21,035 nucleotides of DNA from an uncultured bacterium (GTDB lineage: Bacteria; Muiribacteriota; UBA6191; JACPRK01): assembly GCA_964610245.1 (NCBI GenBank), contig CAZSVK010000032.1, forward strand, positions 1-21,035. The letters are read 5' to 3'. Below, piece by piece: positions 3,598 to 18,506 of this stretch (position 1 is its first letter; every line of letters starts with the position of its first letter). The notes below the pieces were generated by a model. It did no database searches and was not told the origin of the DNA. It saw only the letters and a program-made list of their open reading frames with translations. A program made the position numbers and the translations under genes.

Positions 3598-3676
3598 CTC
3601 AGAGGGGACCCTCGCCGGCCCTGGCATCGAACACGGGCGGTTCCACGGCCAGGCGGCGAGCTGAACCCGAGCGCAG

Positions 3677-3682
3677 TATATA
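3677..3682. promoter_or_regulatory. TATATA element in a 165-bp divergent intergenic region (yqiJ-like gene to the left, epimerase operon to the right); candidate -10 box
   Basis: It is the only AT-rich hexamer in this otherwise very GC-rich intergenic stretch, 81 nt upstream of the epimerase start and 80 nt upstream of the yqiJ-like start. No convincing -35 element is visible. Confidence 0.35.
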
Positions 3683-3719
3683 CCAGGACCTCGCCGGTCG
3701 GGCCTCGGGATGCTCCCGC

Positions 3720-3733
3720 CTGCGGTCCCGCAG
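3720..3733. promoter_or_regulatory. 14-bp palindrome CTGCGG-tc-CCGCAG 30 nt upstream of the epimerase start; candidate operator or 5'-UTR hairpin
   Basis: Read directly: 6-bp perfect inverted arms around a 2-nt spacer. Confidence 0.35.
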
Positions 3734-3762
3734 TGGCGCCGGGCAGCCTCAGTTGGTAGAGT

Positions 3763-4761
3763 TTGCGCGTGCAAGTCAGAGGCGGGCGCTTTGCGGTCAC
3801 CGGTGGGGCCGGATTCATCGGGAGCAACCTGGTCCGGGCGCTGCTGGCCGGCGGCGCGGCCAGGGTCGCGGTGCTCGACAACCTGGTCCGGGGCAGGGCC
3901 CGCCATCTGGAAGATCTTGCGGGCGACCGGCGCCTCGAACTGTTGCTCGGCGATCTTCGCGAGAGCTGGCCCGCGGAGGCGGTCGTGCGCGACTGCGACG
4001 CGGTCTATCACCTGGCCGCTCTGCGCATCCCTCGGTGTCAGGAACGGCCGGACGAGTGCCTGGACTCGATGGTTCGCGGCACCTATTCGCTCTTCGACGC
4101 CGCCGCCCGGCATGCCGTGAAGAAAGTGATCTACGCCAGTTCGGTGGCGGTCTACGGACAGCCGGCGCGCCTGCCGGTCGACGAAGAAGCCCCGGCGGCC
4201 CCGACGACTTTCTACGGCGCGGCCAAGGCGGCCGGCGAGGGATTGCTGAGGGCCTTCGGCGCGCGCGGCGCCTTTGGGTGGACCATCCTGAGGTGCTTCA
4301 ACGTGTACGGGCCTCGGATGGACCACGCCGGTCCGCACACCGAGGTCCTCGTCCGGTGGATGCGGGCCCTGCGGTGCGGCCAGCCTCCGAGGGTGTTCGG
4401 CGACGGAGAGACGACGCTCGACCTGGCGCACGTCGACGATGTCGTGACCGCCTACCTGGCGGCCCTGGCTCCCCGGGCGTCGGGGGGCATCTACAACATC
4501 GGCGCCGGTACCCAGGTCTCGCTGGCCTCCCTGGCCCGGATGCTGGCCGCTGCCGCGGGGAGCGGTCTCGAGCCCGAGTTCGCGGCGGCCCCTCCGGCGG
4601 CGCTCGCCCCTCGCATGGAGGCGTCCGTGGAACGGGCCCGTCGCGAGCTGGGGTTCGTGCCTCGTGTGCCCTTGAGCGATGGCCTTGCCTCGCTCTGGCG
4701 CTGGTTCTGCGAGGTCGACGCCCCTTCCGCCGACGCCCGGAACGCCGAGGTGGCGGAATGA
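3763..4761 (+). CDS. NAD-dependent epimerase/dehydratase, extended SDR family (332 aa); nucleotide-sugar 4-epimerase or decarboxylase type
   Basis: N-terminal Rossmann motif VTGGAGFIGSNLV and catalytic S...YGAAK (YxxxK) are present. The start is TTG at 3763 (alternative GTG at 3769). The stop TGA at 4759-4761 overlaps the next start as ATGA. Confidence 0.85.
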   Translation: MRVQVRGGRFAVTGGAGFIGSNLVRALLAGGAARVAVLDNLVRGRARHLEDLAGDRRLELLLGDLRESWPAEAVVRDCDAVYHLAALRIPRCQERPDECLDSMVRGTYSLFDAAARHAVKKVIYASSVAVYGQPARLPVDEEAPAAPTTFYGAAKAAGEGLLRAFGARGAFGWTILRCFNVYGPRMDHAGPHTEVLVRWMRALRCGQPPRVFGDGETTLDLAHVDDVVTAYLAALAPRASGGIYNIGAGTQVSLASLARMLAAAAGSGLEPEFAAAPPAALAPRMEASVERARRELGFVPRVPLSDGLASLWRWFCEVDAPSADARNAEVAE

Positions 4762-6566
4762 CCGCCATCCTGGGGCTGGGCTTCGGCATCGATTCGGCCG
4801 CGGCGCTGGTCGTGGACGGCCGCGTCGACTCCGCGGCCGCGCAGGAGCGGTTCGATCGCCGGAAGCACTCCCGGGCCTTTCCGATGGACGCGCTCAGGTT
4901 CTGTCTGGGCAGGGCCGGCCTCGACCCCGGCGCGCTCGAGCGGGTTGCGTTCTTCTGGAACCCGGGCGAGCACCTGCGAAACTTCGACTCCCGGCGGGGG
5001 ATGACCTACCGCGACCATCGCGAGTTCCTGGAACTGGTGCCCTCGCATCTGCTGGGCCTGGGGCCGGATCCCGGTCCGGCCGACGTGACCGAGCAGACCT
5101 TCCGCTTTGCCGGCGGGCGGAAGCTCACCATCCAGTATGTAGCGCACCACCTGTGCCACGCGGCCGCCGCCTTCTATCCGAGCGGCTACGACGAGGCGGC
5201 CATCCTGACCGCCGACGGCTACGGCGAGAGCACGAGCTTGCTGATGGCGCGCGGCCGCGACACGCGCATCGAATGTCTCGGCCAGGTGAGCTTTCCCAAC
5301 TCGCTGGGCGCCGTCTATGCTGCGGTGACCGAGCACCTGGGGTTTGCCCCCAACTGCGACGAGGGCAAGGTAATGGCCCTGGCCGCCTGCGCCGAGCCGG
5401 CCTTCTCCCGCGAGTTCGAGCAACTCCTGCGGCTGACCGACGAGGGCCGCTTCGAGGTCGACCTGTCGTACTTCTCGTTCTATCGCCCGGCCCGTTCTCG
5501 CTGTTCGGAAAAGTTTCAGGCGGCGTTCGGCCCCGCGAGGTCCCCTGGAGCGTCGCTCGAGAGGCGCCACGAACAGCTCGCGGCCAGCCTGCAGCAGCGC
5601 GTGGAACAGGCGCTCGTGCATGCCGCGCGGCACCTGCGCCGCGTCTCGGGCTGCCGGCGGTTGGTGATGGCCGGCGGGGTGGCCCTGAACACGGTGGCCA
5701 ACAGCCTCGTCCTGGCCGAGGCGGGGTTCGACGAGCTGTGGGTGTGCCCACCGGCGTCGGATGCCGGGGCGGCGATGGGGGCCGCCTTGTACGCGACCCA
5801 CGCGTTGGACGGAGCGCCGCGGGACGGCGCCGAGTACACCGACTTCCTCGGGCCCGACTACTCGGCCGACGAGGTCCGGGCGTTCCTGACGAGCGCCGGC
5901 GCCGCCTTCGAGGAGTGCCCGGAGCCCGCGCGCGAGGCCGCCCGCCGGCTGGCGGCGGGCGAGATCGTCGGCTGGTTCCAGGGCCGGATGGAGTACGGTC
6001 CCCGGGCGCTGGGAAACCGCTCGATTCTTGCCGATCCGCGCCAGGCCTCGATGAAGGACGTTGTGAACTCCCGCGTTAAACACCGCGAGCCGTTTCGCCC
6101 GTTCGCGCCGGCCTGCCCCGAGGAGTCCGCGCCGGCCTACTTCACGGGCGCGCACCCGTCGCCGTACATGATGAGGGTGTTCGGTTTCGCGCCGGGCTGG
6201 GGCGAACGCCTGGCGGCCGTCCGCCACGTCGACGGCACGGCGAGGCTGCAGACCGTGGCGGCCAGGCAGAACGCCAGCTTTCACAGCCTGCTGCTCGCGA
6301 TGGGCGAGGCGACCGGAACGCCGGTCCTCCTCAACACCTCGTTCAACGACGCGGGCGAGCCGATCGTGCGGACCCCGGCCGAGGCGCTCAAGTGCTTCTG
6401 CTCGACGGGGCTCGATTCGCTGTTCCTCGGGCCCTACCTGATTGCGAAACCTGCGGGCGAGCCGCCGCGGGGGGCGAGCGGGTGCAGGGCCGGAGCCCCT
6501 GCGTTCAATGATGACGGCGCAGCACGCGAAGCGGGCCAGCTCGCTCGGGCGCCCGGGCGGGAGTGA
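4758..6566 (+). CDS. carbamoyltransferase, NodU/CmcH/NovN family (602 aa)
   Basis: ATG at 4758 overlaps the upstream stop. The motifs GFGIDSAAALV and YVAHHLCHAAAAFYPSG match the family His-motif from memory. The C-terminal domain has GRMEYGPRALGNRSILADP, highly conserved in this family. The last ~35 aa form an extra tail. Confidence 0.9.
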   Translation: MTAILGLGFGIDSAAALVVDGRVDSAAAQERFDRRKHSRAFPMDALRFCLGRAGLDPGALERVAFFWNPGEHLRNFDSRRGMTYRDHREFLELVPSHLLGLGPDPGPADVTEQTFRFAGGRKLTIQYVAHHLCHAAAAFYPSGYDEAAILTADGYGESTSLLMARGRDTRIECLGQVSFPNSLGAVYAAVTEHLGFAPNCDEGKVMALAACAEPAFSREFEQLLRLTDEGRFEVDLSYFSFYRPARSRCSEKFQAAFGPARSPGASLERRHEQLAASLQQRVEQALVHAARHLRRVSGCRRLVMAGGVALNTVANSLVLAEAGFDELWVCPPASDAGAAMGAALYATHALDGAPRDGAEYTDFLGPDYSADEVRAFLTSAGAAFEECPEPAREAARRLAAGEIVGWFQGRMEYGPRALGNRSILADPRQASMKDVVNSRVKHREPFRPFAPACPEESAPAYFTGAHPSPYMMRVFGFAPGWGERLAAVRHVDGTARLQTVAARQNASFHSLLLAMGEATGTPVLLNTSFNDAGEPIVRTPAEALKCFCSTGLDSLFLGPYLIAKPAGEPPRGASGCRAGAPAFNDDGAAREAGQLARAPGRE

Positions 6567-6573
6567 AGCCGAC

Positions 6574-8592
6574 GTGAGCAAGAAGCCTTTCGCCAACGAG
6601 TCGCTGACCATCGTGATTCCCGCCTACAACGAGGAGGCGTCGCTCGAGACGGTGTTCCGGGAGGTCCGGGAGCACGCTGCCTTGCTGGTGGGCCGACTCG
6701 AGATGATCGTGGTGGACGACGGCTCGACCGACGGTACCGGCGAGGTGGCCGCTCGCCTCGCCCGGGAGCACCCCTCCACGCGGGCCTTTCACCATCTGCG
6801 CAACCAGGGCAGCGGGCAGGCGATCCTGACCGGCGCGCGCCAGGCCCGGACCGCGCTGGTGATGTACGTGCCCGCCGACGGACAGTTCCATCTGCCGGAG
6901 CTGGCGACCTACCTGGAGGCGGCGCGCCGCGGCCAGGTCGTCATGGGGGCTCGGCCTGAGCGGCCCGACTACTCGGCGTTCCGCCGGCTGGCGTCGCGGG
7001 TGTTCCTGCGTCTGGCCAACGCCGTGCTCGGGACCGACTTCGCGGACCTCAACTGGGTGCACCTGTGGCGCCGCGAGGTCTTCGAAGACACCACGCTCAG
7101 AGCGCGAGGCGTGGCCTTCCTCGCCGATCTGGTGGCCCAGGCGCTGGCCCGCGGCATGTCGGTGGTCCAGGTGCCCTCGCTGCAGCAGCCCCGTCGGGGC
7201 GGCCGCGCGAACGGGACCCGGCCGGCGGTGATCGCGCTGGCGGCGTTCGAACTCGGCCGCATCTGGCTGCGCTCTCGCCGCCGCCTGGCCCCCCGGATGC
7301 GCCCCGGCCGAGGAGTTCTCCAGAGCTATCTCGGTGACTTCTGGTGGCCGGGCGGGCGTCACCGGACCGGCTCCGCCACGGCCTCGGGCAGGGGCCAGAC
7401 GGTGCTGCCCAGGTTGGAGGAGGTCGAGCTGGCGCCGGTGATCCGGGCCCCCTGGATGGACTCGGAAGACCGCCTGCTCCTGCCGATCGGCGTGGCGGTC
7501 GAGCCGATGCCCGAGGGGGCCGAGGTGCTGGCCCGGGTCGAAGGCAGGCCGGTGCTGGTGAAGGAAGAGGCCGGCCTCCGCTTCCTGTTCGACGCCGAGC
7601 AGGCCGCTGCCTGGCGACTGACCGAGGCCTTTCTCTGCCGCCGCAGACCGCTTGCGGCCTGGCTCCCTCCCGGCTACATCTCGCTGCTGCCGGGTCCTGT
7701 GCGGCTGGCGCTCCACCGGCTCTCGACCCTTGGGCGTTCGCCTCGCACGGGCCTGGCCGTGTGGCCCGCCGACCCGTCGGTCGAGTGGCTCAGGTGGGCG
7801 CACCTTCAGGCCCGGGGCTCCCGCGGCGAGGACCGGCAACCGCTTCCCTTCTGGCCCGAGGGGAAGCGCTGGGCCCTGGTGGTGACGCACGACGTCGACA
7901 CGGTCGAGGGGCTGGGCTCCGTCCCCATCGTGGCCGATACCGATCGCGAGCTGGGCTTCCGCCCCTGCTGGTACGTGACCGGAGAGGTGGCTCGCGCGGG
8001 TCTCTCTCAGCTCGACGGGCTGGTGGCTCGCGGTCACGAGCTGGGCCTCCACGGGGATCGACACGACCTGCGGCTGGCCTATCTGCCGCGCCCGGAGATC
8101 GAGCGCCGGCTCGAGACCTGTGCCGACCTGATCTCCAGGTGGAAGATGCGCGGCTACCGGTCGCCCGGTCTTCTGATGACGCGCCGCCTCGCTGGGGTCG
8201 TGGCGCGCTTCTTCGAGTACGACAGCTCGGTGCCGGACAGCGACGTCGCCAGCCCCGCGGGCGCGATTCGAGGCTGCGGCACGGTGTTCCCGTTCGCGCG
8301 CCCCGAGGGCGGGCTCGAGTTGCCGCCGACCCTCCCGCTGGAAGACAAGCTCGCCGCCCTGGGCTACCCCCCGCGAGAGATGCTGGGCATCTGGAGGCAG
8401 AAGATTGATTTCATCCGCAAGGTAGGAGGGATGGCGGTCGTGACCACGCACGCCGAACCCCACCTGGGCGGCTCTCGAGAGTTGCTGGAGGTCTACGCCG
8501 AGTTCCTGGGCGGTCTGGCCGGAGACGCCGACGCCTGGGCGGCCCAGCCCTCCGAGGTGGCGGCCTGGTGGGCCCGCCGGGGAGAACGCTGA
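6574..8592 (+). CDS. bifunctional fusion: N-terminal GT2 polyprenyl-phosphate glycosyltransferase (ArnC/GtrB/DPM1-like) plus C-terminal NodB-type polysaccharide deacetylase (ArnD-like); about 672 aa with a ~220-aa middle region of unknown function
   Basis: GT2 motifs read directly and aligned from memory with E. coli ArnC: LTIVIPAYNEEASL (VSVVIPVYNEQESL), IVVDDGSTDGT (LLIDDGSSDNS), VPADGQFHLPEL (LDADLQNPPEEI), PERPDYSAFRRLASRVF (QNRQDSWFRKTASKMI). The C-terminal LVVTHDVDTVEG...GHELGLHGDRHD is a NodB motif-1/2 pattern of the ArnD RIDVDT type. The start GTG at 6574 is 8 nt after the carbamoyltransferase stop, with GGGAG upstream. An alternative start at ATG 6508 would overlap the previous gene. 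Confidence 0.8.
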   Translation: MSKKPFANESLTIVIPAYNEEASLETVFREVREHAALLVGRLEMIVVDDGSTDGTGEVAARLAREHPSTRAFHHLRNQGSGQAILTGARQARTALVMYVPADGQFHLPELATYLEAARRGQVVMGARPERPDYSAFRRLASRVFLRLANAVLGTDFADLNWVHLWRREVFEDTTLRARGVAFLADLVAQALARGMSVVQVPSLQQPRRGGRANGTRPAVIALAAFELGRIWLRSRRRLAPRMRPGRGVLQSYLGDFWWPGGRHRTGSATASGRGQTVLPRLEEVELAPVIRAPWMDSEDRLLLPIGVAVEPMPEGAEVLARVEGRPVLVKEEAGLRFLFDAEQAAAWRLTEAFLCRRRPLAAWLPPGYISLLPGPVRLALHRLSTLGRSPRTGLAVWPADPSVEWLRWAHLQARGSRGEDRQPLPFWPEGKRWALVVTHDVDTVEGLGSVPIVADTDRELGFRPCWYVTGEVARAGLSQLDGLVARGHELGLHGDRHDLRLAYLPRPEIERRLETCADLISRWKMRGYRSPGLLMTRRLAGVVARFFEYDSSVPDSDVASPAGAIRGCGTVFPFARPEGGLELPPTLPLEDKLAALGYPPREMLGIWRQKIDFIRKVGGMAVVTTHAEPHLGGSRELLEVYAEFLGGLAGDADAWAAQPSEVAAWWARRGER

Positions 8593-9416
8593 TGCCTGGA
8601 AAGAGCTACCAGTTCGACACGGTGGGGGTGCTCTACTCGGGCGGCACCGACAGCACGCTCGCGGCGGTCCTGATGTTGCGCGAGGCCCGCAAGGTCGTCC
8701 TGCTGACGTTCGACCCCGGCTACGTCTTCTTCCTGGCGAACACCAAGGTACACGCGCGGATGCTCGCGGAGCGCTTCGGCGAGGAGAGGGTCGAGCAGCG
8801 CATCATCGACGTCCGGCCGCTCGTGGGCAGGCTGCTCTTCGGCGCCGCTCGGAGCGACTTCGAGAAGTACGCCTTCGGTCTGACCAGCCTGGTCTGTCTG
8901 GGCTGCAGGCTGTCGATGCACGCGGCGGCGATCATCCACCTGCTCGAGACCGGCATTCCGTATCTGGCCGATGGGGCGATCCGTCAACAGTGCGACACGC
9001 CGGAACAGATGGAATCGACCCTGGAGAGCCAGCGGGAGCACTACATGGAGCGCTACGGGCTGGTGCACATGTCCCCTCTCTACGAAGAGGCGCGTTCCGA
9101 CCTGGTGCTGCAGGAGATGGGCCTGGCGGCCTTCCCCGCCCTGAAGAAGCAGTTCATCCTGTACGACACGCAGGCGACCTGCCCGTTCGGAGTGAGTGCC
9201 GACGTTTATGCTCGCATCTTCTACCGGCCCTGGCTGATGGGCGACCGCCGGGAGCGCGACGCCGCCTGCTACCGCGAGGACAAGTACCCGGTGATGGAGC
9301 GCGTCATACGCGAGCACTTCGAGTCGAAGGGGCAGAGCATGGAAGAACTCGTGCGGACCATCCGCGCGACCGTCGAGCGAGATCGGCAGTGGAACTCGCA
9401 GGGAGCGGGCCAGTGA
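8592..9416 (+). CDS. PP-loop ATPase of the adenine-nucleotide alpha-hydrolase superfamily (274 aa); QueC/ExsB-like, or a sugar amidotransferase of the WbpG/PseA type
   Basis: SGGxDS PP-loop motif (VLYSGGTDSTLAAVL) 12 residues from the N-terminus. A Cys pair (LVCLGCRL) is present. Strong RBS GGAGAA 5 nt before ATG 8592, which overlaps the upstream stop (TGATG). Confidence 0.7.
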   Translation: MPGKSYQFDTVGVLYSGGTDSTLAAVLMLREARKVVLLTFDPGYVFFLANTKVHARMLAERFGEERVEQRIIDVRPLVGRLLFGAARSDFEKYAFGLTSLVCLGCRLSMHAAAIIHLLETGIPYLADGAIRQQCDTPEQMESTLESQREHYMERYGLVHMSPLYEEARSDLVLQEMGLAAFPALKKQFILYDTQATCPFGVSADVYARIFYRPWLMGDRRERDAACYREDKYPVMERVIREHFESKGQSMEELVRTIRATVERDRQWNSQGAGQ

Positions 9417-9564: not shown

Positions 9565-12500
9565 CTATTCGGGCCGGCCGGAACGCTCGCTCGGTTCCTT
9601 CGGCTGAGGGGGGCCGATGACGGGCACGGTGTCGAGCGAGGGCGCCCCCGGCGAGAGCGGCGGCCGCTGCAGCCTGACGACGCCGAAGCCGCTGGCCACG
9701 CCTCCGAGGCCGAGCAGCAGCTCGTGCTCGTCCAGCGGCCGGATCGCCAGCTTGAATGCCACCTTGGATTCGTACGCGGGAAGCGGATCCGGCAGGACTT
9801 CCATCCGCACGAGGATCCGGCCCTCGGGGGTGAAGCCCAGGAGTCGGTTTCCCTCCACCAGAACGTAGAGGTTACCCTTCGGGCCGCAGGTCATGCGAGA
9901 TAGCGCGGTGACGTCCACGGCCCGCCAGAAGTCGAACTCCCTCCCTTCCGCCGAGAGCACGGCGATACCGCCCCTCCGCTGGGTCGTGACGTAGATCCGC
10001 TGCCCGTCCGGCGAGCTGCAGAGCGACGTCGCGCCGAAGCAGTTCCAGGCGGGCTTCGGCTCGCCGTCGGGCTCGAACCGCAGGATCTTCCCCGACAGAG
10101 AGTCGGCGACCAGCACGGTGGACGAGGCCGCGTCGTAGGCGATCCCGCTGAGCCGGTGCGTCTCGCCGGCAAAGGTGACGAGACGGTTCAATTGCCCGTC
10201 CGGTCGGATGAACAGCAGCCGGCTGGCATAGCAGTCGGCCAGGAAGAGCGTGCCGTCGGGCGCGGTCGCGAGCGAGTAGCCGAAGCGCAGGAAGCCCCGG
10301 GTGGGAGGCAACTCGATCGGCCGGTCCTGCTGGTCTCGCAGCCCCTTCCAGGAGCGCACCGGGGCCCCGTCCAGGTCGAGGCAGAGGAGGGGGGCCCGGC
10401 CGTGGCCCAGCAAGTAAATGCGACCGTTCACAAACGCCATGTCTTGCGTGCGCCCTCCGATTTCGGGCTCGACCCAGTATCGGTACCGGACGCTGGCCAC
10501 CGAAAGTTCCGGCTCCACGACCGGTCTGGCGCGGAAGAGCGCGTTCGCCGGGAGCTTGCGCAGGAACACCTCGGACGGCACCTCGGAGAACCGGTCGAAA
10601 GACGGCGGGCGCCAGGAGAACGAGATCGGGCCGACCGTCGTCCGGGCCGTGGTCGCGCGGGCCGAGAAAGCCTGCCAGCCCTCCGGGAACCACCCGGAGA
10701 GGCCGCACCCTCCGGCGCTCGAGCTGGCCGTGCGCTCCCCGATCGAGAGGATGGCACCGCGGGTCCCGTCGAACCGGAAGTCCCACAGTCCCTCCTGGTG
10801 CAGATAGAGCGCCCCGGTCCACCGGTAACCGCGGTCCGGTTGCAGGGCGATGCCCGGCATGTTCAGGCCCGAGACCAGCAGGTCCGGCGACGTGTTCACA
10901 TCCAGCCCGGAGGACAGATAGAGCCCCTGGAAGGAATGGGCCTCCCGCCGGGAAACGGTGTAGAGGTCGAGTCCGCAACCGCTGCCCGCGGGCCCCTCCC
11001 AGCGCTCGTGCCGTCCGCCGGGAAACGTCTCTTCCAGCAACTTCTGCCACTCCTCCTTGCCCAGGACGTAGCTGACGTCGGACCAGGAAGGGAAGACGGG
11101 AAAGAGGTTCAGACCGAGGGCCGAGACCACGCCGAAGTTGTTCAGGAGGAAGGCGAGGTTGGGAGCCATGCCCATCTGTCCCGTGAGGAACGGATAGCGT
11201 ACGGTCGACTGAGAGACGACAACCTGGCGCTCGGGCGCGAGGTGCGCCGCGGCGCGGAGAAGCTTCTCCTGCGGGGGCATCATCCCGATCTGCGAGCACA
11301 TCCTCACCAGGCTGTGGTGCAGGTCCGAGAACTCGGCGGCGATCAGGGCCAGGAACGCGGCCATCAGGACCAGGCCGCGTCGGCCGGTCGCAAGACACGT
11401 CCAGAGTCTGTCGAGCCCCAAGGCGAGCCAGATGTAGAGCGGCACGATGCCGAGCAGGAAGCGGCGCGCGGCGGCAGCCTCGAAGTGCACGACCAGGGGC
11501 GGGAGAAGCGCCAGGGAGATGAGCGAGACCGTCAGCGCGTCGGTCAGCGTGGAACCAGTCGGCGCGGCGGGGGCGAGCGCTCCTGGGCCGGCTGCGCCGC
11601 GGGGGGGGGCTGGCTGCGGCCGCGTCGGGTCCCGGTGCCCGGCCCGCAACAGAGCGAGCGCCCCGAGCAGGGCCAGCGGCACCAGGCTGCGAGGAAGCGG
11701 CACGAACCCCTCCAGATACGGCTCCACTCCGAGGAAGATGCCGGCAACGTCCGGCACCCGCCGCAGGGCGTGTCCCAGCGCCTCGACCGGGGACATCCCT
11801 GCCGTCGTCATCCTCGTCAACCGCCCGGCGTACAGCTCGAGTGTCGAGGCGTCCTGGACGAAAGGCGAGAAGAGGGCGAGCGTGACCACGAACGTCAGCA
11901 AGCAGCCGAGCATCAGCCGGCCGGGCAACGTCCGGCGTGACGACCAGCATCCCAGGGCCAGGATCGTCAGCAGGATGGGCGGGACGATCCGGAAGGCCGG
12001 ATAGGTATGGAGTCCGGCGCCCAGCATCAGCCCCATGCCCAGGAAGTCGGTCAGCCGTCCGGTCGACAGCGCCCGGACCATGAAGAGCAGCGCGCCGGCT
12101 TCGAACACGGCGGGGTAGATGATGGTGTTGGCCTGTCTGCTGAAGTGGCACAGCGTGGGGTCGACGGCGGCGAGCAGCGCGGCCAGGGCCGCGGGCAGAC
12201 GCCGCGCGAGCCTGCGAAACAGCCAGAACAGGAGCACCGGACAGCAGGCCCCGAGCAGCGCCGCCGGAAGCCGGAAGGCGAGCATCGTGGGGCCGAACAG
12301 GCTGAAGCTGAAGGCGTGCAGATAGAAGAACAGCGCCTCCTCGCCCGGCACGGCCCGATCCAGCACCGGGCCCGGTTGCCACGTGTGATTGAGGATGCCG
12401 GCGATGAGCCCGCCGTTGATTCCCTCGTCGAGGTTGGGCGAGGGCGGCCGGAACTCCAACCAATAGAACCTGGCGAGCAATGCCAGCGCGAAGACCGCCA

Positions 12501-12714
12501 GCGTGATGAGCTGGTCCGCCGAGGAGAACGGCTCGGGTCTCGTCGGTTTCTCTTGCGGCCGAGCCGCGCGGTAGAGCAACACCGCCACCGCCGACATCAG
12601 GCACGCGGCCGGCAGCAGGTTCCCCCGCTCGGAGGGCGCCAGAGCGAGGTTGAGCAGACTGGCCCCCGCCAGCCCGAGAAACACCCATCTTCGTCCTGTG
12701 GAACCCTGGACCAC
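9565..12714 (-). CDS. large GT-C-fold membrane glycosyltransferase (GT39 PMT / GT83 ArnT-like, multi-TM N-terminus with DE loop motif) fused to a PA14-like middle domain and a C-terminal NHL-repeat beta-propeller (1049 aa)
   Basis: GTG at 12714 and TAG at 9565-9567. The N-terminal ~450 aa has more than 10 hydrophobic helices, and PNLDEGINGG sits in the first loop; a DE motif there is the PMT/ArnT hallmark. The middle GYRWTGALYLHQEGLWDFRFDGTRGAILSIGERT is PA14-like. C-terminal repeats LFLADCYASRLLFIRPDG, VLVADSLSGKILRFEPDG, IYVTTQRRGGIAVLSAEG and LYVLVEGNRLLGFTPEG are NHL-like. GGAGG lies 11 nt upstream of the start. Confidence 0.8.
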   Translation of the reverse strand: MVQGSTGRRWVFLGLAGASLLNLALAPSERGNLLPAACLMSAVAVLLYRAARPQEKPTRPEPFSSADQLITLAVFALALLARFYWLEFRPPSPNLDEGINGGLIAGILNHTWQPGPVLDRAVPGEEALFFYLHAFSFSLFGPTMLAFRLPAALLGACCPVLLFWLFRRLARRLPAALAALLAAVDPTLCHFSRQANTIIYPAVFEAGALLFMVRALSTGRLTDFLGMGLMLGAGLHTYPAFRIVPPILLTILALGCWSSRRTLPGRLMLGCLLTFVVTLALFSPFVQDASTLELYAGRLTRMTTAGMSPVEALGHALRRVPDVAGIFLGVEPYLEGFVPLPRSLVPLALLGALALLRAGHRDPTRPQPAPPRGAAGPGALAPAAPTGSTLTDALTVSLISLALLPPLVVHFEAAAARRFLLGIVPLYIWLALGLDRLWTCLATGRRGLVLMAAFLALIAAEFSDLHHSLVRMCSQIGMMPPQEKLLRAAAHLAPERQVVVSQSTVRYPFLTGQMGMAPNLAFLLNNFGVVSALGLNLFPVFPSWSDVSYVLGKEEWQKLLEETFPGGRHERWEGPAGSGCGLDLYTVSRREAHSFQGLYLSSGLDVNTSPDLLVSGLNMPGIALQPDRGYRWTGALYLHQEGLWDFRFDGTRGAILSIGERTASSSAGGCGLSGWFPEGWQAFSARATTARTTVGPISFSWRPPSFDRFSEVPSEVFLRKLPANALFRARPVVEPELSVASVRYRYWVEPEIGGRTQDMAFVNGRIYLLGHGRAPLLCLDLDGAPVRSWKGLRDQQDRPIELPPTRGFLRFGYSLATAPDGTLFLADCYASRLLFIRPDGQLNRLVTFAGETHRLSGIAYDAASSTVLVADSLSGKILRFEPDGEPKPAWNCFGATSLCSSPDGQRIYVTTQRRGGIAVLSAEGREFDFWRAVDVTALSRMTCGPKGNLYVLVEGNRLLGFTPEGRILVRMEVLPDPLPAYESKVAFKLAIRPLDEHELLLGLGGVASGFGVVRLQRPPLSPGAPSLDTVPVIGPPQPKEPSERSGRPE

Positions 12715-12837
12715 GATCCTTCACGCCTCCACGCCCGGGGACATTCTAGGGCCAGAAGGCGAGGAAGTCATCCGGGCCGACGCCACACACCCGCTCGTCC
12801 TGGGCGCTTGGGGGAGCCGCGGGACCTGGCGGCGCGT

Positions 12838-14214
12838 TCAGATCAGGTCGTGGCTGGGCGACGAGTTCACGAAACCCGCGAGCCGCTTCAGCCCGAGCCA
12901 GGCGTCGACGGGCCTCGACATGACCCTCCCGAGCTGCCGCAGAGCGTAGCCCGGCCGCAGGTAGAACCGGCGGTAGAACTTCTGCTCGGCAGCGAGGGTG
13001 CTGTCGGGCGCCGTGACGGGTCGGAAGGGGAAGAGCGACGATGGCCGGGAGTCGAGCCCCAGCGAGGTGCCGGGCCAGTACTGGAGGCGGGTGACGATGA
13101 CGAAGTCGAGGTCCCAGTCGATGGCGGCGCGGATGCTGGCGTCGATGTCGGAGGGGGTCTCCCAGGGCGTGCCGACGATGAAGAAGCCGCTCAGCTCGAG
13201 GCCCGCGTCGCGCACCTGGCGGACGAGCCTGGGCATCTGCTCGGCGCGGTAGCCCTTCCGCAGGGAGTCGAGCACGAGTTGCGAGGTGCTCTCCAGACCG
13301 ACGTAGAGGCGGCGGCAGCCGGCGCGTCGCATCTCGGCCAGCAGCGAGGGCTCGAGGCAGTCGAGGCGCGAGAGGGCGGTCCATTCGAGGTCCAACCGCT
13401 CGCGCGACAGCAGACGGCAGAGTTCGAGGAGACGCGGCCGGTCGAGCGGCAGCGTGTCGTCCATGAAGCGGAGGTTGCGGACTCCGTGGCGGCCGGCGAG
13501 CAGGCGGGCCTCGTCGAGGATGTTGCCGGGACTGCGGTAGCGCATCTGGCGGCCGTAGGTGCGCGTGCAGAAGACGCAGGCGTGCGAGCAGCCGCGGGCA
13601 CTGAGGGTGACCGCGATCGGGCCCGGGCGCAGCGGCTCGGCGTAGAGCGAGAGGTCGACCAGCGAGTGGTCGGGCAGCGGCAGCCGGTCGAGGTCGTCGA
13701 TGCGGGGCCGCCGCGGGTTGACCACCGGTTGGCGGCCGTCCCGGAAGGCCAGGCCCGGGACCCCGGCGAGCGTCGTGCGGGTGGCGAGGCAGTCGAGGAG
13801 GTCGGCGAAGACGAGTTCGGGCTCGTCCAGGAGCACGACGTGCAAGGGGCAGTGCTCGAGCACGTCGGCCGGAAACTCGGATGGGAGGTAGCCGGTGGCG
13901 CAGACGGTGGCGTGGGGGTGGTCGGAAACCAGCGCGGCGGCGGCGGCGAGGTCGCCCGGGAAGGTCGAGAAGCCCACGGCGAGCACGATGACGTCCGGCC
14001 CGAAGCGCACCGCCTCTCGGCGCACGCCGTCGAGGTCGAGGTCCCGGGCGACGGCGTCGACGACCAGCACGTCGCTGCCCTTCCAGTCGCGGGCGAGCGC
14101 CGCAAGCCCCATCAGCTCCATCGGAGGCATCAGGAAGTTGGGCGCGTAGTACGACGCGGTCCAGCGGCGCATGACGCGCTCCCGGGCCGGTGGATTGAGG
14201 AAGAGGACTCGCAC
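12838..14214 (-). CDS. B12-binding radical SAM enzyme, class B (458 aa); probable methyltransferase or other radical tailoring enzyme
   Basis: N-terminus MRVLFLNPP starts the cobalamin-binding domain. The radical SAM cysteine triad is CSHACVFC (CxxxCxxC). GTG start at 14214 with GGGGAG upstream. Stop TGA at 12838-12840. Confidence 0.85.
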   Translation of the reverse strand: MRVLFLNPPARERVMRRWTASYYAPNFLMPPMELMGLAALARDWKGSDVLVVDAVARDLDLDGVRREAVRFGPDVIVLAVGFSTFPGDLAAAAALVSDHPHATVCATGYLPSEFPADVLEHCPLHVVLLDEPELVFADLLDCLATRTTLAGVPGLAFRDGRQPVVNPRRPRIDDLDRLPLPDHSLVDLSLYAEPLRPGPIAVTLSARGCSHACVFCTRTYGRQMRYRSPGNILDEARLLAGRHGVRNLRFMDDTLPLDRPRLLELCRLLSRERLDLEWTALSRLDCLEPSLLAEMRRAGCRRLYVGLESTSQLVLDSLRKGYRAEQMPRLVRQVRDAGLELSGFFIVGTPWETPSDIDASIRAAIDWDLDFVIVTRLQYWPGTSLGLDSRPSSLFPFRPVTAPDSTLAAEQKFYRRFYLRPGYALRQLGRVMSRPVDAWLGLKRLAGFVNSSPSHDLI

Positions 14215-14271
14215 GACTCGATTCTACTCCCCCCGCCGGTGAGCGTCACCCGGCCGGATTCGTGGGAGTTC

Positions 14272-14850
14272 CTACGGTGTCCGGAGCCGCCTCGGCGCGA
14301 CCGGGCGGGCGGGGTTGCCGGCGACGACCGCCCCGTCGGGGACGTCTCGCGTCACGACGGCGCCGGCGCCGACGAGCGCGCCCCGGCCGACGACGACCCC
14401 CGGGAGGATGGTGGCGTTGACTCCGATGCGGGCGCCGCTGCGGACGACCGGGCCCTCGAGGTCCCCGGGGCCGCGGACGGGGTACTTGTCGTTGGCGAAG
14501 ACGACGCCCGGGGCGACGAAGACGTCGTCCTCGAGGACGGTGAACTGGGCGAGGTAAACTCCGGAGTGTATCTTGACCCGATCGCCGACCGTGCAGCCGT
14601 AGTCGACGATGCTGTTGCTCCAGATCGAGACCTGGCGCCCGATGCGGGTCTGCTCGCGAACGACGACGTTGTGCCCGGTCTCGAAGTCGTCTCCGATGAC
14701 GACGTTGGTGTAGAGGACGGTGCCCGAGCGCAGACGGGCCCGGGCGCCGAGCACGCCGGGCACGATCTCGATGGCCCGCGAGGGCCGGTAGTCGAGCAGC
14801 ACGCCGGGCTCGAGCCCCGGATTGGCTTGCCCTTCGCTCACGGGACTCAC
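14272..14850 (-). CDS. hexapeptide-repeat (left-handed beta-helix) acyltransferase (192 aa); sugar N- or O-acetyltransferase of the WbbJ/PglD/QdtC type
   Basis: Repeated [LIV]-G-x-x-x-x hexapeptides (IGRQVSIWSNSIVDYGCTVGDRVKIHSGVYLAQFTVLEDDVFVAPGVVFAND). The GTG start at 14850 overlaps the upstream stop (GTGA). Confidence 0.8.
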   Translation of the reverse strand: MSPVSEGQANPGLEPGVLLDYRPSRAIEIVPGVLGARARLRSGTVLYTNVVIGDDFETGHNVVVREQTRIGRQVSIWSNSIVDYGCTVGDRVKIHSGVYLAQFTVLEDDVFVAPGVVFANDKYPVRGPGDLEGPVVRSGARIGVNATILPGVVVGRGALVGAGAVVTRDVPDGAVVAGNPARPVAPRRLRTP

Positions 14851-15323
14851 GGTTTGCCGGCCCCGGTCCTGGCAGGCGCGGGCGCGGGGGGCTCAGCCTT
14901 GGGAGGGGCCTTGCCGAGCGGGTCGGCGACGCAGGGGCTGGGGAGAAAGCCGGACTGCTTGCGCTCGTCGAGACTGGCCTTGGCGTCCTTCTTCTGCAGG
15001 GCGTCGAGCGCCTCGGCGAGCGGCTTGACCCGGCCCGAGAGCTTGCGGTCGTGGCGGGCGTACCAGAGATAACGCCGCAGGCACTTGGCCTCGTGCCTCA
15101 GGGTCTCGGCCTCCATCTTGATCGCCTTGTCCTCGGCGCCGTGCTTGACCAGCAGCCTCTCGCGCTCGAGCCTGAGCCGGAGCCAGCGCAGCGAGGCCTC
15201 GCAGTCCTTGTCGATCGCGGCGCCGGAATCGGGTAGCGGCTCGTCGGAGGCCGCGGCCGGCCCGGATCCCTGGCAGGCGAGCCCGAGGGCGAGGAGCGCG
15301 GCCAGGGCGAGCGGGCGCGTCAT
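14847..15323 (-). CDS. small secreted or lipoprotein-like protein (158 aa) with a signal peptide, four Cys, a charged helical core and a Pro/Ala-rich C-terminal tail
   Basis: ATG at 15323 overlaps the HEAT-2 stop (ATGA). The signal peptide is MTRPLALAALLALGLACQGS. The tail is FLPSPCVADPLGKAPPKAEPPAPAPARTGAGKP. The stop overlaps the acyltransferase start. Confidence 0.6.
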   Translation of the reverse strand: MTRPLALAALLALGLACQGSGPAAASDEPLPDSGAAIDKDCEASLRWLRLRLERERLLVKHGAEDKAIKMEAETLRHEAKCLRRYLWYARHDRKLSGRVKPLAEALDALQKKDAKASLDERKQSGFLPSPCVADPLGKAPPKAEPPAPAPARTGAGKP

Positions 15324-16720
15324 TGCAGGATCTTCGCGAAGGCGCGCAGCTCGGGGGTCTCGGCGATGGCCACGGTCTTGTTGCGGTAGGCCTGGGCGAT
15401 CGCCTTGCCCATCCGGACGAAGGAGGCGCGCATCTTGGCGCGGTACTGGTCGAGGCCGCTGGTGAGGATCTGGGTCTTCAGCTCGCCGTCGGGGGCGAGG
15501 CTGTGCGAGAGGGAGCGCAGGTAGTCCTGGTAGCGCGTGATCTCGTAGTAGTGGACCATCAGGGCCTTGTCCTTGAGCTCGCCGCGGCGGCAGAGTTCGA
15601 AGCCGTCGACGCCTATCTTGAACAGCAGGCGCGAGAGCGTGGCCTTGACCTCCGCCTCGCGCAGCTCCTGGGCGATGTTGAGGATCTCGCGCTTGAAGGT
15701 GCGCTCGACCTTCTCCCGGACACGGGCCTGGAACTCCTCGTCTTCCGGGGTCGCCTTCGCGGGAGGCGTGGGGATGTAGGGCATGTTGGAGCTGGCGTCG
15801 TTCAGTCCCAGCTCCTGGCGCTGCTTGAGCAGCTCCCGGATGTCGACCCCCTTGGCCGCGAGAATCTCGATCGCCTGCTGGCGCACGGTGGGATCGTTGT
15901 CGTCTATCCGGCGGGTGATGGCCGCGACGGCCCTCTCGCCGGTGCAGTCGGCGAGGCACTTCACGGCCCGGAGGCGAACCCCTTCGTAGGCGTCGCTGGC
16001 GGCGCGCACGAGCAGGTCTTCCAGATCGAGCTTGGAGAGCTGGGCAATGGCGTAGACCGCGCTCTCGCGCATCGCGACCTTGTCGCTGTCGAGCATCGAC
16101 GCGAGGTACTCCTTGACGTGAGGATCGCCGAAGCGGCCCAGCGCCTTGACGACGTTGGAGCGCACCCGGTTGTTCTCGTCGTTGAGGAGCGGTACCAGCA
16201 GCGGGATGTGTCGCTTGTCGCCCAGGTCTTCGAACACCTCGACCGCATTCGCCCGCACGCGGTCGTCTGAGTGGGAGAGGAACCTGCTCGTGTCGGCCAG
16301 CACCGACGGGTCGGTGCACCTCCTCAGATTCGCGAGGATCGACGCGATCTTGACCGTGTCGGTCTCCCGCACCAGTTCGGCCACGAGCTGCCGGCCGGCG
16401 GCCGGCGGAGGAGGCGGAGCGGCCGGCTGCTGCGGCGCGGCCTGGGACCTGGCGACGGCCCCGGCGAGCGCCTCCCGGGAGATGGACTGGGTCTGGCGGC
16501 CGCCCGCATCCATGTAGTTGGCCGCCTTCTTGGCGAGGAAGGCAATGTCGCCGTTAGGTCCGGTGCACAGCTCGTTCACCTTGCGGCGGAGGATCTGCAG
16601 CTCTTGCTGGGTGACGCCGTCGTCGAAGCTGATGCGGGTGACGGTCGTCAGGGCGAGCGTCTGGATCTCCGAATCGGAGTCGGACAGATCCTCGATGATG
16701 CGCTGGATCTTGAGGGACAT
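15320..16720 (-). CDS. HEAT-repeat protein, paralog 2 (466 aa): conserved N-terminal segment, Pro/Ala linker, about 5 PBS-lyase-type HEAT repeats, conserved C-terminal domain of unknown function
   Basis: HEAT-like repeats DDRVRANAVEVFEDLGDKRHIPLLVPLLNDENNRVRSNVVKALGRFGD... are present. The C-terminal motif YYEITRYQDYLRSL is shared with the upstream paralog. ATG at 16720 lies 18 nt after the upstream stop. Confidence 0.75.
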   Translation of the reverse strand: MSLKIQRIIEDLSDSDSEIQTLALTTVTRISFDDGVTQQELQILRRKVNELCTGPNGDIAFLAKKAANYMDAGGRQTQSISREALAGAVARSQAAPQQPAAPPPPPAAGRQLVAELVRETDTVKIASILANLRRCTDPSVLADTSRFLSHSDDRVRANAVEVFEDLGDKRHIPLLVPLLNDENNRVRSNVVKALGRFGDPHVKEYLASMLDSDKVAMRESAVYAIAQLSKLDLEDLLVRAASDAYEGVRLRAVKCLADCTGERAVAAITRRIDDNDPTVRQQAIEILAAKGVDIRELLKQRQELGLNDASSNMPYIPTPPAKATPEDEEFQARVREKVERTFKREILNIAQELREAEVKATLSRLLFKIGVDGFELCRRGELKDKALMVHYYEITRYQDYLRSLSHSLAPDGELKTQILTSGLDQYRAKMRASFVRMGKAIAQAYRNKTVAIAETPELRAFAKILQ

Positions 16721-16738
16721 CGCTTGGCGGAAGGCAGG

Positions 16739-18421
16739 TCAGGCTCCGGCGCGGCTGGCCTGGGCCAGCTCGGCCAGGAGCTTGCGGATTGGCTCGCCCT
16801 CGCGAGGCGGGAGCTGCAGCTGCTGGCGCTGGAGGAGTTCGGCGGCCTGGCGGCCAAGCTGGGTGAAGGAGGCCTTGATCTTCTCTTGCAGGTGTTCGAT
16901 GGCCGAGGTCCGGGTGGCATCCTCGGGATCTCCGCGCTTCACCATGTAGTTCCGGAGGAAGTCCTGATAGCGGAGGACCTCGTAGAAGACGCTGTCGAGG
17001 TTCTCGTGAGTGAGCACGTTGAGCCTGCAGAGCTGGTAGATCTCGGTGCCCAGGCCACGGTAGAGTTCCTCGAGATGGGCGGCCTGCTCCGGGGCCGAAG
17101 GGGCCTTGGCCGGGGCCGCCAGAGGCGCGGGGGCCGGCGCTGCCGGTTCGGGCTTCTCGGGGATCGGCGGCGGGGCGGCGGCCTCGGCGGCCGCGCGCTG
17201 GTTCTGGAGCAACACCTTGATGGCCCGGAGCGCTTCGGCGGCGGCCTCGCAGATGTTGATGTCGAGGTCGTTGAGCATGCGCTTGAGGGCGATGACCACG
17301 GCGCGCGTCGGGAAGCGGGCGAGCGCCTTGGTGGCCCGCAGGCGAACGCCCTCGTACGGGTCGTCGAGCGCGTGCAGGAGCAGCGCCTCGACGAACGGCA
17401 TGTCGATCTTGGAGAGAACGTAGACCGCCGTCTCGCGCATGCTCATCGCCGACTGCGCGAGCATGTCCCGGAGCGTGTCTTCGACCCCGGCGTAGCCCAG
17501 CTTCGCCAGAGCGACCGCGGCGTTACCGCGAGCGCGGTTGTTGCGGTCGGCCAGGCGCGGAACCAGCCAGTCGATGTGATGGTGCGTGCCCAGCCGCTCG
17601 AACACCTCGATGGCGTTGGCTCGAACGCGATCGTCGGCGTGCTCCAGGAGCGATCGTAGTGCGTCCAGGTCGGCGGTGGTGCCCTTTGAGGCGAGCTGGA
17701 TCAGACAGGATGCGATGTAGTAGGTCGGAAGCGGCCGCGTGATCGCGTCGAGCAGCTCGGGCCGCGACAGCGAGCTTGCGTCCGGCAGCGGAGGACCTGC
17801 CGGCTTGGCGGGCGCAGTCGGCGCGGGGGCCGGGCGCGGGGGCCGGGGCGGCAGGCCGGCCACGGGCGGCGCGGCTACCGGCGGGGCGGCCTGCGCGATC
17901 GCGGCTGCGGCCGGTGGGGCGGCAGGGATCGCGACCGGGGCCGGGGCCGGCGCGGCGCTGGGTGCGCCTACCAGCGCCGGCGCCCCGGGCAGGACGACCG
18001 CCGCCACCGGCTGCTGCGGCTCGATCGCGATCGGCTGGAGCGGCGCTACCGGGGCGAGCGTCACGGGTATGACCGGCGACTCGAGTGCCTGCACGAACGG
18101 GATGGGCGTGGCAACCACCGGCGCGGCGATCGGCTCGGGTGAGGGCGTCGCGGGGCCGGCCGGTCCTGCCGGGGCCTCCTGGTCGTGGAGGCATGCCTTG
18201 AAGGCCGAATCGATGTGATTGAAGGCCTTGCGCGCCAGGAATACGACGTCGGGATTGTCCGACGACGACAGCGGCTTGAGGCGGGCCGCGATCTCGCGGA
18301 TCTCTGCGGGAGAGTCGACGATCTGCGGGCTGAGCCGCGTGATGCTCATCAGGGCGAAGGTCTTGATCTGCGGATCGGGATGAGCGAGATCGGCGCAGAT
18401 TTTCGCGAGATTGACGGCCAT
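16739..18421 (-). CDS. HEAT-repeat protein, paralog 1 (560 aa) with a long Pro/Ala-rich low-complexity linker
   Basis: The start is the internal ATG at 18421 (MAVNLAKICADL...), preceded by AGGAG with an 8-nt spacer; the ORF-track start at 18463 lacks an RBS. HEAT repeats DDRVRANAIEVFERLGTHHHIDWLVPRLADRNNRARGNAAVALAKLG... are present. The C-terminal motif FYEVLRYQDFLRNY matches paralog 2. Confidence 0.75.
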   Translation of the reverse strand: MAVNLAKICADLAHPDPQIKTFALMSITRLSPQIVDSPAEIREIAARLKPLSSSDNPDVVFLARKAFNHIDSAFKACLHDQEAPAGPAGPATPSPEPIAAPVVATPIPFVQALESPVIPVTLAPVAPLQPIAIEPQQPVAAVVLPGAPALVGAPSAAPAPAPVAIPAAPPAAAAIAQAAPPVAAPPVAGLPPRPPRPAPAPTAPAKPAGPPLPDASSLSRPELLDAITRPLPTYYIASCLIQLASKGTTADLDALRSLLEHADDRVRANAIEVFERLGTHHHIDWLVPRLADRNNRARGNAAVALAKLGYAGVEDTLRDMLAQSAMSMRETAVYVLSKIDMPFVEALLLHALDDPYEGVRLRATKALARFPTRAVVIALKRMLNDLDINICEAAAEALRAIKVLLQNQRAAAEAAAPPPIPEKPEPAAPAPAPLAAPAKAPSAPEQAAHLEELYRGLGTEIYQLCRLNVLTHENLDSVFYEVLRYQDFLRNYMVKRGDPEDATRTSAIEHLQEKIKASFTQLGRQAAELLQRQQLQLPPREGEPIRKLLAELAQASRAGA

Positions 18422-18506
18422 GAACCGGACTCCTGCCGGACGGTGCCGGCATCTGCCGATCATATCGATGCAGCGCCCGAAAGTAAAGGCACCCGGGGCG
18501 TCGGGC

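Follow-up and report, generated by a model that had tools for sequence, protein, structure and literature searches.

What may a membrane-embedded glycosyltransferase of the GT-C type gain from carrying, behind its catalytic core, a PA14-like domain and an NHL-type beta-propeller? The question is raised by a gene on a contig of an uncultured bacterium (GTDB lineage Bacteria; Muiribacteriota; UBA6191; JACPRK01; NCBI GenBank assembly GCA_964610245.1, contig CAZSVK010000032.1). The window, that is the whole stretch of DNA that was analysed, comprises positions 1 to 21,035 of the forward strand of this contig (21,035 nucleotides), and the gene occupies positions 9565..12714 of the minus strand. The answer favored here, with moderate confidence and by analogy with better known enzymes, is that the product would be a lipid-linked-sugar-dependent GT-C transferase whose acceptor is bound or positioned by alpha/beta, PA14-like and NHL-propeller domains that face outward.

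The gene and the parts of its product, from the N- to the C-terminus, are as follows (pLDDT, predicted local distance difference test).

9565..12714, minus strand: whole gene, stop codon included, for a 1049-aa GT-C glycosyltransferase with putatively extracytoplasmic PA14-like and NHL-type propeller domains (open reading frame list, translation, third-codon-position G+C, orthologues)
12538..12714, minus strand: N-terminal residues 1-59, where at most two hydrophobic helices (5-24, 33-51) accompany a basic cytoplasmic loop, predicted with low confidence (Kyte-Doolittle; model pLDDT 41-64)
11287..12537, minus strand: GT-C transmembrane catalytic core, residues 60-476, with 11 predicted transmembrane helices
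12424..12429, minus strand: putative catalytic DE motif D96-E97 (in NLDEGING), first extracytoplasmic loop (translation; alignment)
10933..11274, minus strand: predicted extracytoplasmic alpha/beta domain after the last transmembrane helix, residues 481-594 (model secondary structure, pLDDT ~50-84)
10549..10929, minus strand: PA14-like beta-sandwich, residues ~596-722, without the DcisD motif (profile against PDB, hhalign, model, Foldseek)
9655..10512, minus strand: six-bladed NHL-type beta-propeller, residues ~735-1020
9568..9654, minus strand: Pro-rich disordered C-terminal tail, residues 1021-1049 (pLDDT 32-35)

The gene and its membrane core

An earlier sequence-only reading of the window had drawn attention to this open reading frame (ORF), and it proved real, exactly at these coordinates. 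The frame opens with GTG at 12714, preceded by GGAGG 11-15 nt on its 5' side, and its G+C content at the three codon positions (0.68/0.51/0.89) shows the pattern of real genes in this window of ~70% G+C. Its translation has hydrophobic helices at the beginning and beta-rich repeats at the end. Orthologues from independent assemblies share 89% (P0002) and 75% (P0022) identity with the window protein; P0002 begins at the same start, and a near-identical, NCBI-derived copy of 1039 aa (P0001) begins 10 codons downstream of the ORF start. The possibility that the frame is a shadow ORF of high-GC DNA is ruled out by the codon-position G+C, and a chimeric assembly by the existence of 18 independent co-linear relatives with the same fusion.

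These relatives were collected by a HMMER search with a full-length family profile among 1.84 billion representatives, which gave 26,172 matches at E <= 1e-3, of which 174 reach E <= 1e-30. In about 16 representatives the match is co-linear and covers almost the entire profile; with other co-linear sequences that were retrieved, they make up the 18 relatives that form a divergent subfamily with the window protein (19 members). Apart from two close orthologues, identity within the subfamily is 21-38%, and all of its clusters that were looked up are singletons.

The assignment of the N-terminal half as a PMT/ArnT-type GT-C core, as first proposed, was borne out by domain and motif searches. The Pfam family PMT_2 (PF13231) matches residues 128-285 (window 11860-12333) with E 4e-16 and 60.1 bits (cut-off 26.1), accompanied by sub-threshold PMT and STT3 matches, and it is also the family detected in 18 of the 19 subfamily members. 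A single-sequence phmmer search of residues 1-600 against PDB yielded nothing relevant, and a profile built from eight N-terminal halves of the subfamily recovered yeast Pmt1 (6p25) with E 4.8e-4. In this alignment the subfamily motif dlDEgiNG falls on vvFDEvHFG of Pmt1, which is the loop-1 DE motif. D96 is present in every subfamily member (19/19) and E97 in all except one (18/19); R148, R167, R193 and R418 are invariant. By its sequence, the window protein is a PMT_2-type GT-C enzyme and not the orthologue of a named one.

The topology was examined on a full-length model built from a 9-sequence alignment (predicted template modelling score, pTM, 0.58); an 18-sequence alignment that included NHL-only proteins was dropped for modelling, as these proteins were smeared over the transmembrane region. 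The helices of the model span residues 65-87, 144-169, 172-191, 199-218, 221-234, 239-258, 265-287, 342-360, 386-402, 415-441 and 445-476. Ten membrane crossings would therefore separate the loop with the DE motif from residue 476, which places the C-terminal domains on the same side as that loop. The distribution of charges agrees with this arrangement: the short loops of the predicted inner side (e.g., 170-172, 259-267) are rich in Arg and Lys, and in the long loops of the predicted outer side (87-144 and 287-337) acidic residues (Asp, Glu) outnumber basic ones (Lys, Arg). Helix count and positive-inside rule thus support, short of proof, the earlier proposal that the C-terminal half is periplasmic, a term used here for any location outside the cytoplasmic membrane.

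Folds and constraint of the C-terminal half

The PA14-like segment lies below the reach of routine domain searches. Pfam PA14 (PF07691) has no match in the whole window protein, nor in the isolated segment at E <= 1, and among the subfamily it is found in 4 of 19 isolated segments and in 2 of 19 members in the subfamily-wide scan. For profile searches, window residues 592-724 were aligned with the equivalent stretch of the 18 co-linear relatives. Against PDB the best match of this segment profile is the PA14-domain protein 6qdi (3.7e-5), followed by a sulfatase, an NKG2-D chain (over a 22-residue stretch only), Vip4Da1 (9e-4) and residues 58-142 of the anthrax protective antigen (PA; ~2e-3). 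By hhalign the segment aligns with the isolated PA14 domain of P0006, a canonical relative of 1256 aa in which Pfam detects PMT_2, two PA14 domains and NHL repeats, with a probability of 94.4% and E 9e-8. A separate AlphaFold model of the segment reached pLDDT 89.1 and pTM 0.84, and each of the 17 Foldseek matches of this model at E <= 0.001 is to a PA14 domain or to a protein that contains one. The top matches in PDB are the PA14 domain of the anti-sigma factor RsgI (TMq 0.71-0.76), the Marinomonas adhesin lectin MpPA14, Lg-Flo1, Flo1/Flo5, anthrax PA and Epa. On the concordance of profile, hhalign, model and structural comparison, the PA14 fold predicted for this segment, which had been suspected from the sequence, can be regarded as a sound assignment.

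The propeller also escapes single-sequence detection: Pfam NHL (PF01436) has no match in the scan of the window protein, and the only C-terminal Pfam match is SGL (PF08450), with E 0.11 and 12.6 bits (cut-off 26.3). Four of the 19 subfamily members do match NHL (best E 2.7e-29). BLASTP of residues 764-976 against the NHL region of P0006 gave E 4e-10 (a single comparison), and hhalign of a five-member C-terminal alignment against P0006 is co-linear from the second PA14 domain through the propeller (probability 97.8%, E 1e-12). The C-terminal profile matches NHL-annotated proteins in a 5.8-billion set with E values from 1e-23 to 1e-4 and, in PDB, the designed propeller Pizza6 (2.3e-13), TRIM71 (7e-10), Thin (1e-8) and PknD (1.4e-5), besides YncE and the NHL domain of teneurin. 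In the model, residues 737-1016 form six groups of four strands (pLDDT 85-94). The sequence-only reading had counted at least four NHL-type blades; the predicted propeller is six-bladed and NHL-type. It had also looked to Pfam for PMT_2, PA14 and NHL together, and of these only PMT_2 was found in the single-sequence scan. Judged by that scan the repeats would not pass as NHL, a verdict that is reversed by the family profiles, hhalign and the model.

Every domain is under purifying selection. The ratios of nonsynonymous to synonymous substitutions (dN/dS) against the 89% orthologue are 0.25 for the GT-C core, 0.19 for the alpha/beta domain, 0.37 for the PA14-like domain, 0.22 for the propeller and 0.61 for the tail, so that constraint on the folded accessory domains is about equal to that on the core. 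Among the 19 members, conservation in the C-terminal half is almost confined to Gly, Trp and Pro positions (G634, G642, G679, W701, P722, G821, G840, G904, G924, G947, G965, and P975); E678 and D861 are the only polar ones. By this pattern of residues, what is conserved in the C-terminal half is the fold.

A recurrent architecture and its counterparts

To the sequence-only reading a length of 1049 aa appeared unusual for this type of transferase and the fusion appeared undescribed. The length is ordinary among the relatives, many of which have 1000-1300 aa; numerous further matches of the family profile, of 1100-1300 aa, were matched in several stretches. As for the fusion, a census was made with Pfam-verified segments of P0006 as local phmmer probes on 169 collected proteins. 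The combination of GT-C, PA14 and NHL occurs in at least 65 of them and 22 more carry GT-C and PA14; in all eight proteins sampled, the Pfam gathering thresholds for PMT_2, PA14 and NHL were passed. The named carriers are "hypothetical protein" entries from Chloroflexota and Anaerolineae metagenome-assembled genomes (MAGs), and automatic JGI names of relatives such as "ArnT-like glycosyltransferase/sugar lactone lactonase" describe the same combination. The architecture is therefore visible in databases, and in this respect the claim of novelty fell; searches of the literature, in contrast, gave no study of it. The sole literature trace is a gene table on Chloroflexi (PMC8756737) that lists, incidentally, a "PMT2/PA14 hypothetical protein".

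In the canonical proteins (P0006; P0049, which is TAK32112.1 from a Chloroflexota MAG; and those of Anaerolineae) the order GT-C, PA14, six-bladed NHL propeller is the same as in the window protein, and P0006 shares with it the DE motif region and 39% identity over the PMT_2 core. The differences concern the accessory domains: canonical relatives have two PA14 domains and NHL repeats above Pfam thresholds and are ~150-250 aa longer, whereas the window protein has one shortened PA14-like domain and Pfam-silent blades. Since some members of the divergent subfamily match PA14 or NHL in Pfam, the subfamily grades into the canonical PMT_2-PA14-NHL family. As judged from the sequences, the window protein is a rare, divergent member of a recurrent, uncharacterised and mainly metagenomic family.

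Three observations bear on the distribution of these genes. A scan of 185,579 GTDB species representatives brought up no relative for the GT-C protein and no close one for the neighboring epimerase, and the source lineage is probably poorly sampled. At the P0006 locus (L006, 5812-8571 and 10001-13771) a second gene with PMT_2 and PA14, of 919 aa, lies 1.4 kb upstream on the same strand, which suggests a local duplication of this enzyme type. The 89% orthologue P0002 and two relatives with 36% identity, P0003 and P0004 (on L002, L004, and L001), all derive from ENA sample ERZ27284380, and they represent either one genome with several paralogues or related organisms that occur together.

The design principle is shared by enzymes in which a GT-C core is joined to a large outer or lumenal non-catalytic module that is thought to bind the acceptor: mycobacterial AftD and EmbC, with carbohydrate-binding modules (CBMs), and TMTC1-4 and TMEM260, with tetratricopeptide repeats (TPRs). 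TMTC and TMEM260 are GT-C enzymes with TPR modules. The folds differ, being CBM or TPR in these enzymes and PA14-like plus NHL propeller in the window protein. In the protein O-mannosyltransferases (PMTs) Pmt1, Pmt2 and Pmt4 (GT39; 6p25, 6p2r, 9e61) a MIR beta-trefoil is placed within a loop, whereas here the PA14-like domain and the propeller are C-terminal; similarity to the PMTs is marginal (profile E 4.8e-4; 15 bits for NCBIfam Pmt, against 800). ArnT (GT83; 5f15), the undecaprenyl-phosphate-L-Ara4N:lipid A transferase, has neither PA14 nor propeller, and no ArnT family model is matched by the window protein. B4GALNT3 does not belong to the GT-C enzymes; it is a Golgi enzyme of the soluble-domain type. 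Its PA14 domain is a glycan-binding lectin that serves in substrate targeting within a glycosyltransferase (PMC13018970, PMC11254600); the PA14-like domain of the window protein differs from it in lacking DcisD. In Mycobacterium tuberculosis PknD (1rwi), the source of the Pizza designs, the propeller is an extracellular sensor domain that one transmembrane helix links to a kinase instead of to a GT-C core; we know of no ligand for it.

Acceptor and donor

In the mechanism that is proposed, the 11-helix core would present D96-E97 in its first outward-facing loop and, by analogy with PMT and ArnT, would accept, on the outer side of the cytoplasmic membrane, the sugar that a polyprenyl-phosphate-sugar donor carries. 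Outside the membrane the chain would continue with three domains: first the alpha/beta domain, then a degenerate sandwich of PA14 fold, and last the six-bladed propeller of NHL type. Their most likely task would be to hold or select, beside the active site, an acceptor that is either a protein or an envelope polymer. Acceptor recognition by the C-terminal module is plausible by analogy with the enzymes mentioned above. The donor could be made by the product of an adjacent gene, an ArnC-like (or DPM1-like) glycosyltransferase of family 2 (GT2). The remaining features of the window are listed below.

606-2591, minus strand: SPFH/Band 7 protein, next to a YqiJ/NfeD-like ORF
3763-4761, plus strand: SDR epimerase/dehydratase
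~4758-6566, plus strand: NodU-like carbamoyltransferase
6442..8592, plus strand: GT2 in a 716-aa ORF (670-680 aa in orthologues), its C-terminal tail weakly deacetylase-like (Glycos_transf_2 2.5e-22; Polysacc_deac_1 0.0048)
8568-9416, plus strand: PP-loop DUF7411 protein
12743..12771, minus strand: promoter-like site ATGACT-17-TAGAAT, weak and sigma-70-like, a consensus match only, within the 123 bp that separate the GT-C gene from the gene upstream of it
12838-14850, minus strand: HpnJ-like B12-binding radical-SAM enzyme (1.6e-41, below cut-off) and NeuD/PglB-type hexapeptide acetyltransferase, directly upstream of the GT-C gene
15320-20666, minus strand: two HEAT-repeat proteins (466 and 574 aa) and then, upstream, a 719-aa Ser/Thr protein kinase
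9872-12724, minus strand (950 aa); 10156-11940, plus strand (594 aa); 12007-15072, plus strand (1021 aa): shadow ORFs over real genes, with shifted codon-position G+C

Long spurious frames such as the last three are abundant because the window has ~70% G+C. The 611-aa ORF at 2596-4431 (minus strand) shows a change of codon-position G+C pattern at ~3500-4000, and the gene called at this place on the orthologous contig L002 has 333 aa; the real gene within it is probably shorter. Of promoter-like sites one was seen, against 0.2 expected in shuffled sequences.

The sugar-modification cluster (3763-9416, plus strand) is convergent with the GT-C gene. The best NCBIfam match of its GT2 is ArnC (1.4e-17; 63.7 bits, cut-off 529), followed by dolichyl-phosphate hexose transferase and PpgS, all far below their cut-offs; with its deacetylase-like C-terminus, it might be an ArnC+ArnD-like fusion. 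In distant homologues the GT2 domain occurs in fusion with PMT_2 and with GtrA, a Rosetta-stone hint that the adjacent GT2 may make a polyprenyl-phosphate sugar for use by a GT-C transferase; it is by this token a candidate donor synthase for the GT-C protein. The closest full-length GT2 homologues with an organism name come from Candidatus Wallbacteria MAGs (41-46%), and the epimerase matched, among GTDB species representatives, only loci of unrelated phyla with 23-35% identity, the best ones with 33-35%.

Several results weigh against acceptor recognition by the C-terminal module of a lipid-linked-sugar-dependent transferase. The models of named enzymes remain well out of reach, with 15.1 bits for NF058602 (Pmt; cut-off 800) and 42.9 for TIGR03663 (Agl23; cut-off 126), and no characterised member of the architecture was found in the literature. 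The relative placement of the domains in the full-length model is unreliable, and in the C-terminal half of the 19 members no invariant ligand site is visible by sequence. Synteny is kept only in the 89% orthologue, P0003, P0004, P0005 and P0006 being in unrelated contexts, so that neither donor nor acceptor can be read from the gene neighborhood. Finally, the DcisD calcium/sugar motif is absent from the PA14-like domain: two independent alignments place T651-R652 at the position of the DD pair. At this alignment column DD is found in 1 of the 19 subfamily members and in 22 of 149 PA14 domains of canonical relatives. Carbohydrate binding is common among PA14 domains (PMC6852018, PMC8092209) and the role of DcisD has been described; an RsgI PA14 module without DcisD is reported to bind no calcium and to be unable, alone, to bind pectin (PMC6852018). 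Carbohydrate binding thus cannot be deduced from the fold, and what is familiar of PA14 lectins cannot simply be transferred to the window domain.

What kind of acceptor would be recognized is a matter for tentative proposals. One, held with low confidence, is that the module recognizes a folded protein; the enzymes would then constitute a class of bacterial domain-specific protein O-glycosyltransferases, similar to TMTC and TMEM260 but with another recognition fold, and the adjacent cluster might supply as donor an unusual lipid-linked sugar, carbamoylated or de-N-acylated. Another, which is the preferred explanation in a more specific version with a glycan in place of a protein as acceptor and which we also consider doubtful, is that the PA14-like domain and the propeller bind polysaccharide in the manner of the EmbC and AftD CBMs and that the enzyme extends or decorates an envelope glycan with a donor from the epimerase, carbamoyltransferase and GT2-deacetylase cluster. 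The carbohydrate binding common among PA14 domains, the AftD precedent (10.1101/2019.12.22.885152) and the adjacent genes for sugar modification (SDR epimerase, NodU-like carbamoyltransferase, ArnC-like GT2 with deacetylase-like tail, NeuD-type acetyltransferase) speak for a glycan, but DcisD is missing, and the cluster, whose transcription converges with that of the GT-C gene, is kept in no relative beyond the 89% orthologue. In addition, proteins and RNA are the better known ligands of NHL propellers.

An unlikely alternative to acceptor selection is that the C-terminal module acts as an anchor, scaffold or sensor, by tethering the enzyme to the wall or an outer layer, by oligomerisation, or by responding to an external ligand. 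The closest solved bacterial relatives of both domains are indeed extracytoplasmic sensors (PknD, 1rwi; RsgI PA14, 6qe7/6qdi), and the strand of the GT-C gene carries, upstream of it, genes for HEAT-repeat proteins and a Ser/Thr kinase; nevertheless, the module is covalently joined to a catalytic GT-C core with an intact DE motif and to no signaling domain, and the kinase neighborhood is not seen near other family members.

Quite improbable is a bifunctional enzyme in which the propeller is itself catalytic (a lactonase, lyase or hydrolase; compare SMP-30/gluconolactonase, Vgb lyase, PAL, and strictosidine synthase) and processes the glycan or the acceptor. This is what the weak SGL match (E 0.11 in the window protein, 0.0013 in P0005) and the JGI name "sugar lactone lactonase YvrE" of relatives would suggest, but the best sequence and fold matches of the propeller are non-catalytic NHL domains (Brat, TRIM71, Thin, and the PknD-derived Pizza) and no conserved metal-binding or catalytic polar set appears in the propeller sequences of the 19 members, D861 and glycines being the only positions conserved at >=80%. 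That the GT-C core is a catalytically dead scaffold which merely anchors an extracytoplasmic PA14/NHL binding protein is hardly credible, since the failure to reach the Pmt and Agl23 equivalog thresholds and the strong divergence of the subfamily (21-38% identity) are outweighed by the near-invariant D96-E97 motif, the invariant core arginines and the core dN/dS of 0.25.

Acceptor binding or positioning by the C-terminal module is thus the explanation that we retain. GT-C enzymes decide which proteins and envelope polymers receive sugars outside the membrane, and how they choose an acceptor is known in few cases, such as PMTs (MIR domains), TMTCs (TPRs), and AftD and EmbC (CBMs). The recurrent family of a PMT_2 core with PA14 and NHL domains, most of whose members come from uncultured lineages, may provide a new case for the study of acceptor selection in bacteria. 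The accessory domains of the window gene are invisible to routine Pfam searches, which indicates that the architecture is under-annotated. If the acceptor were a folded protein, these enzymes, including those of the larger PMT_2-PA14-NHL family, would represent a previously unrecognized class of bacterial protein O-glycosyltransferases.

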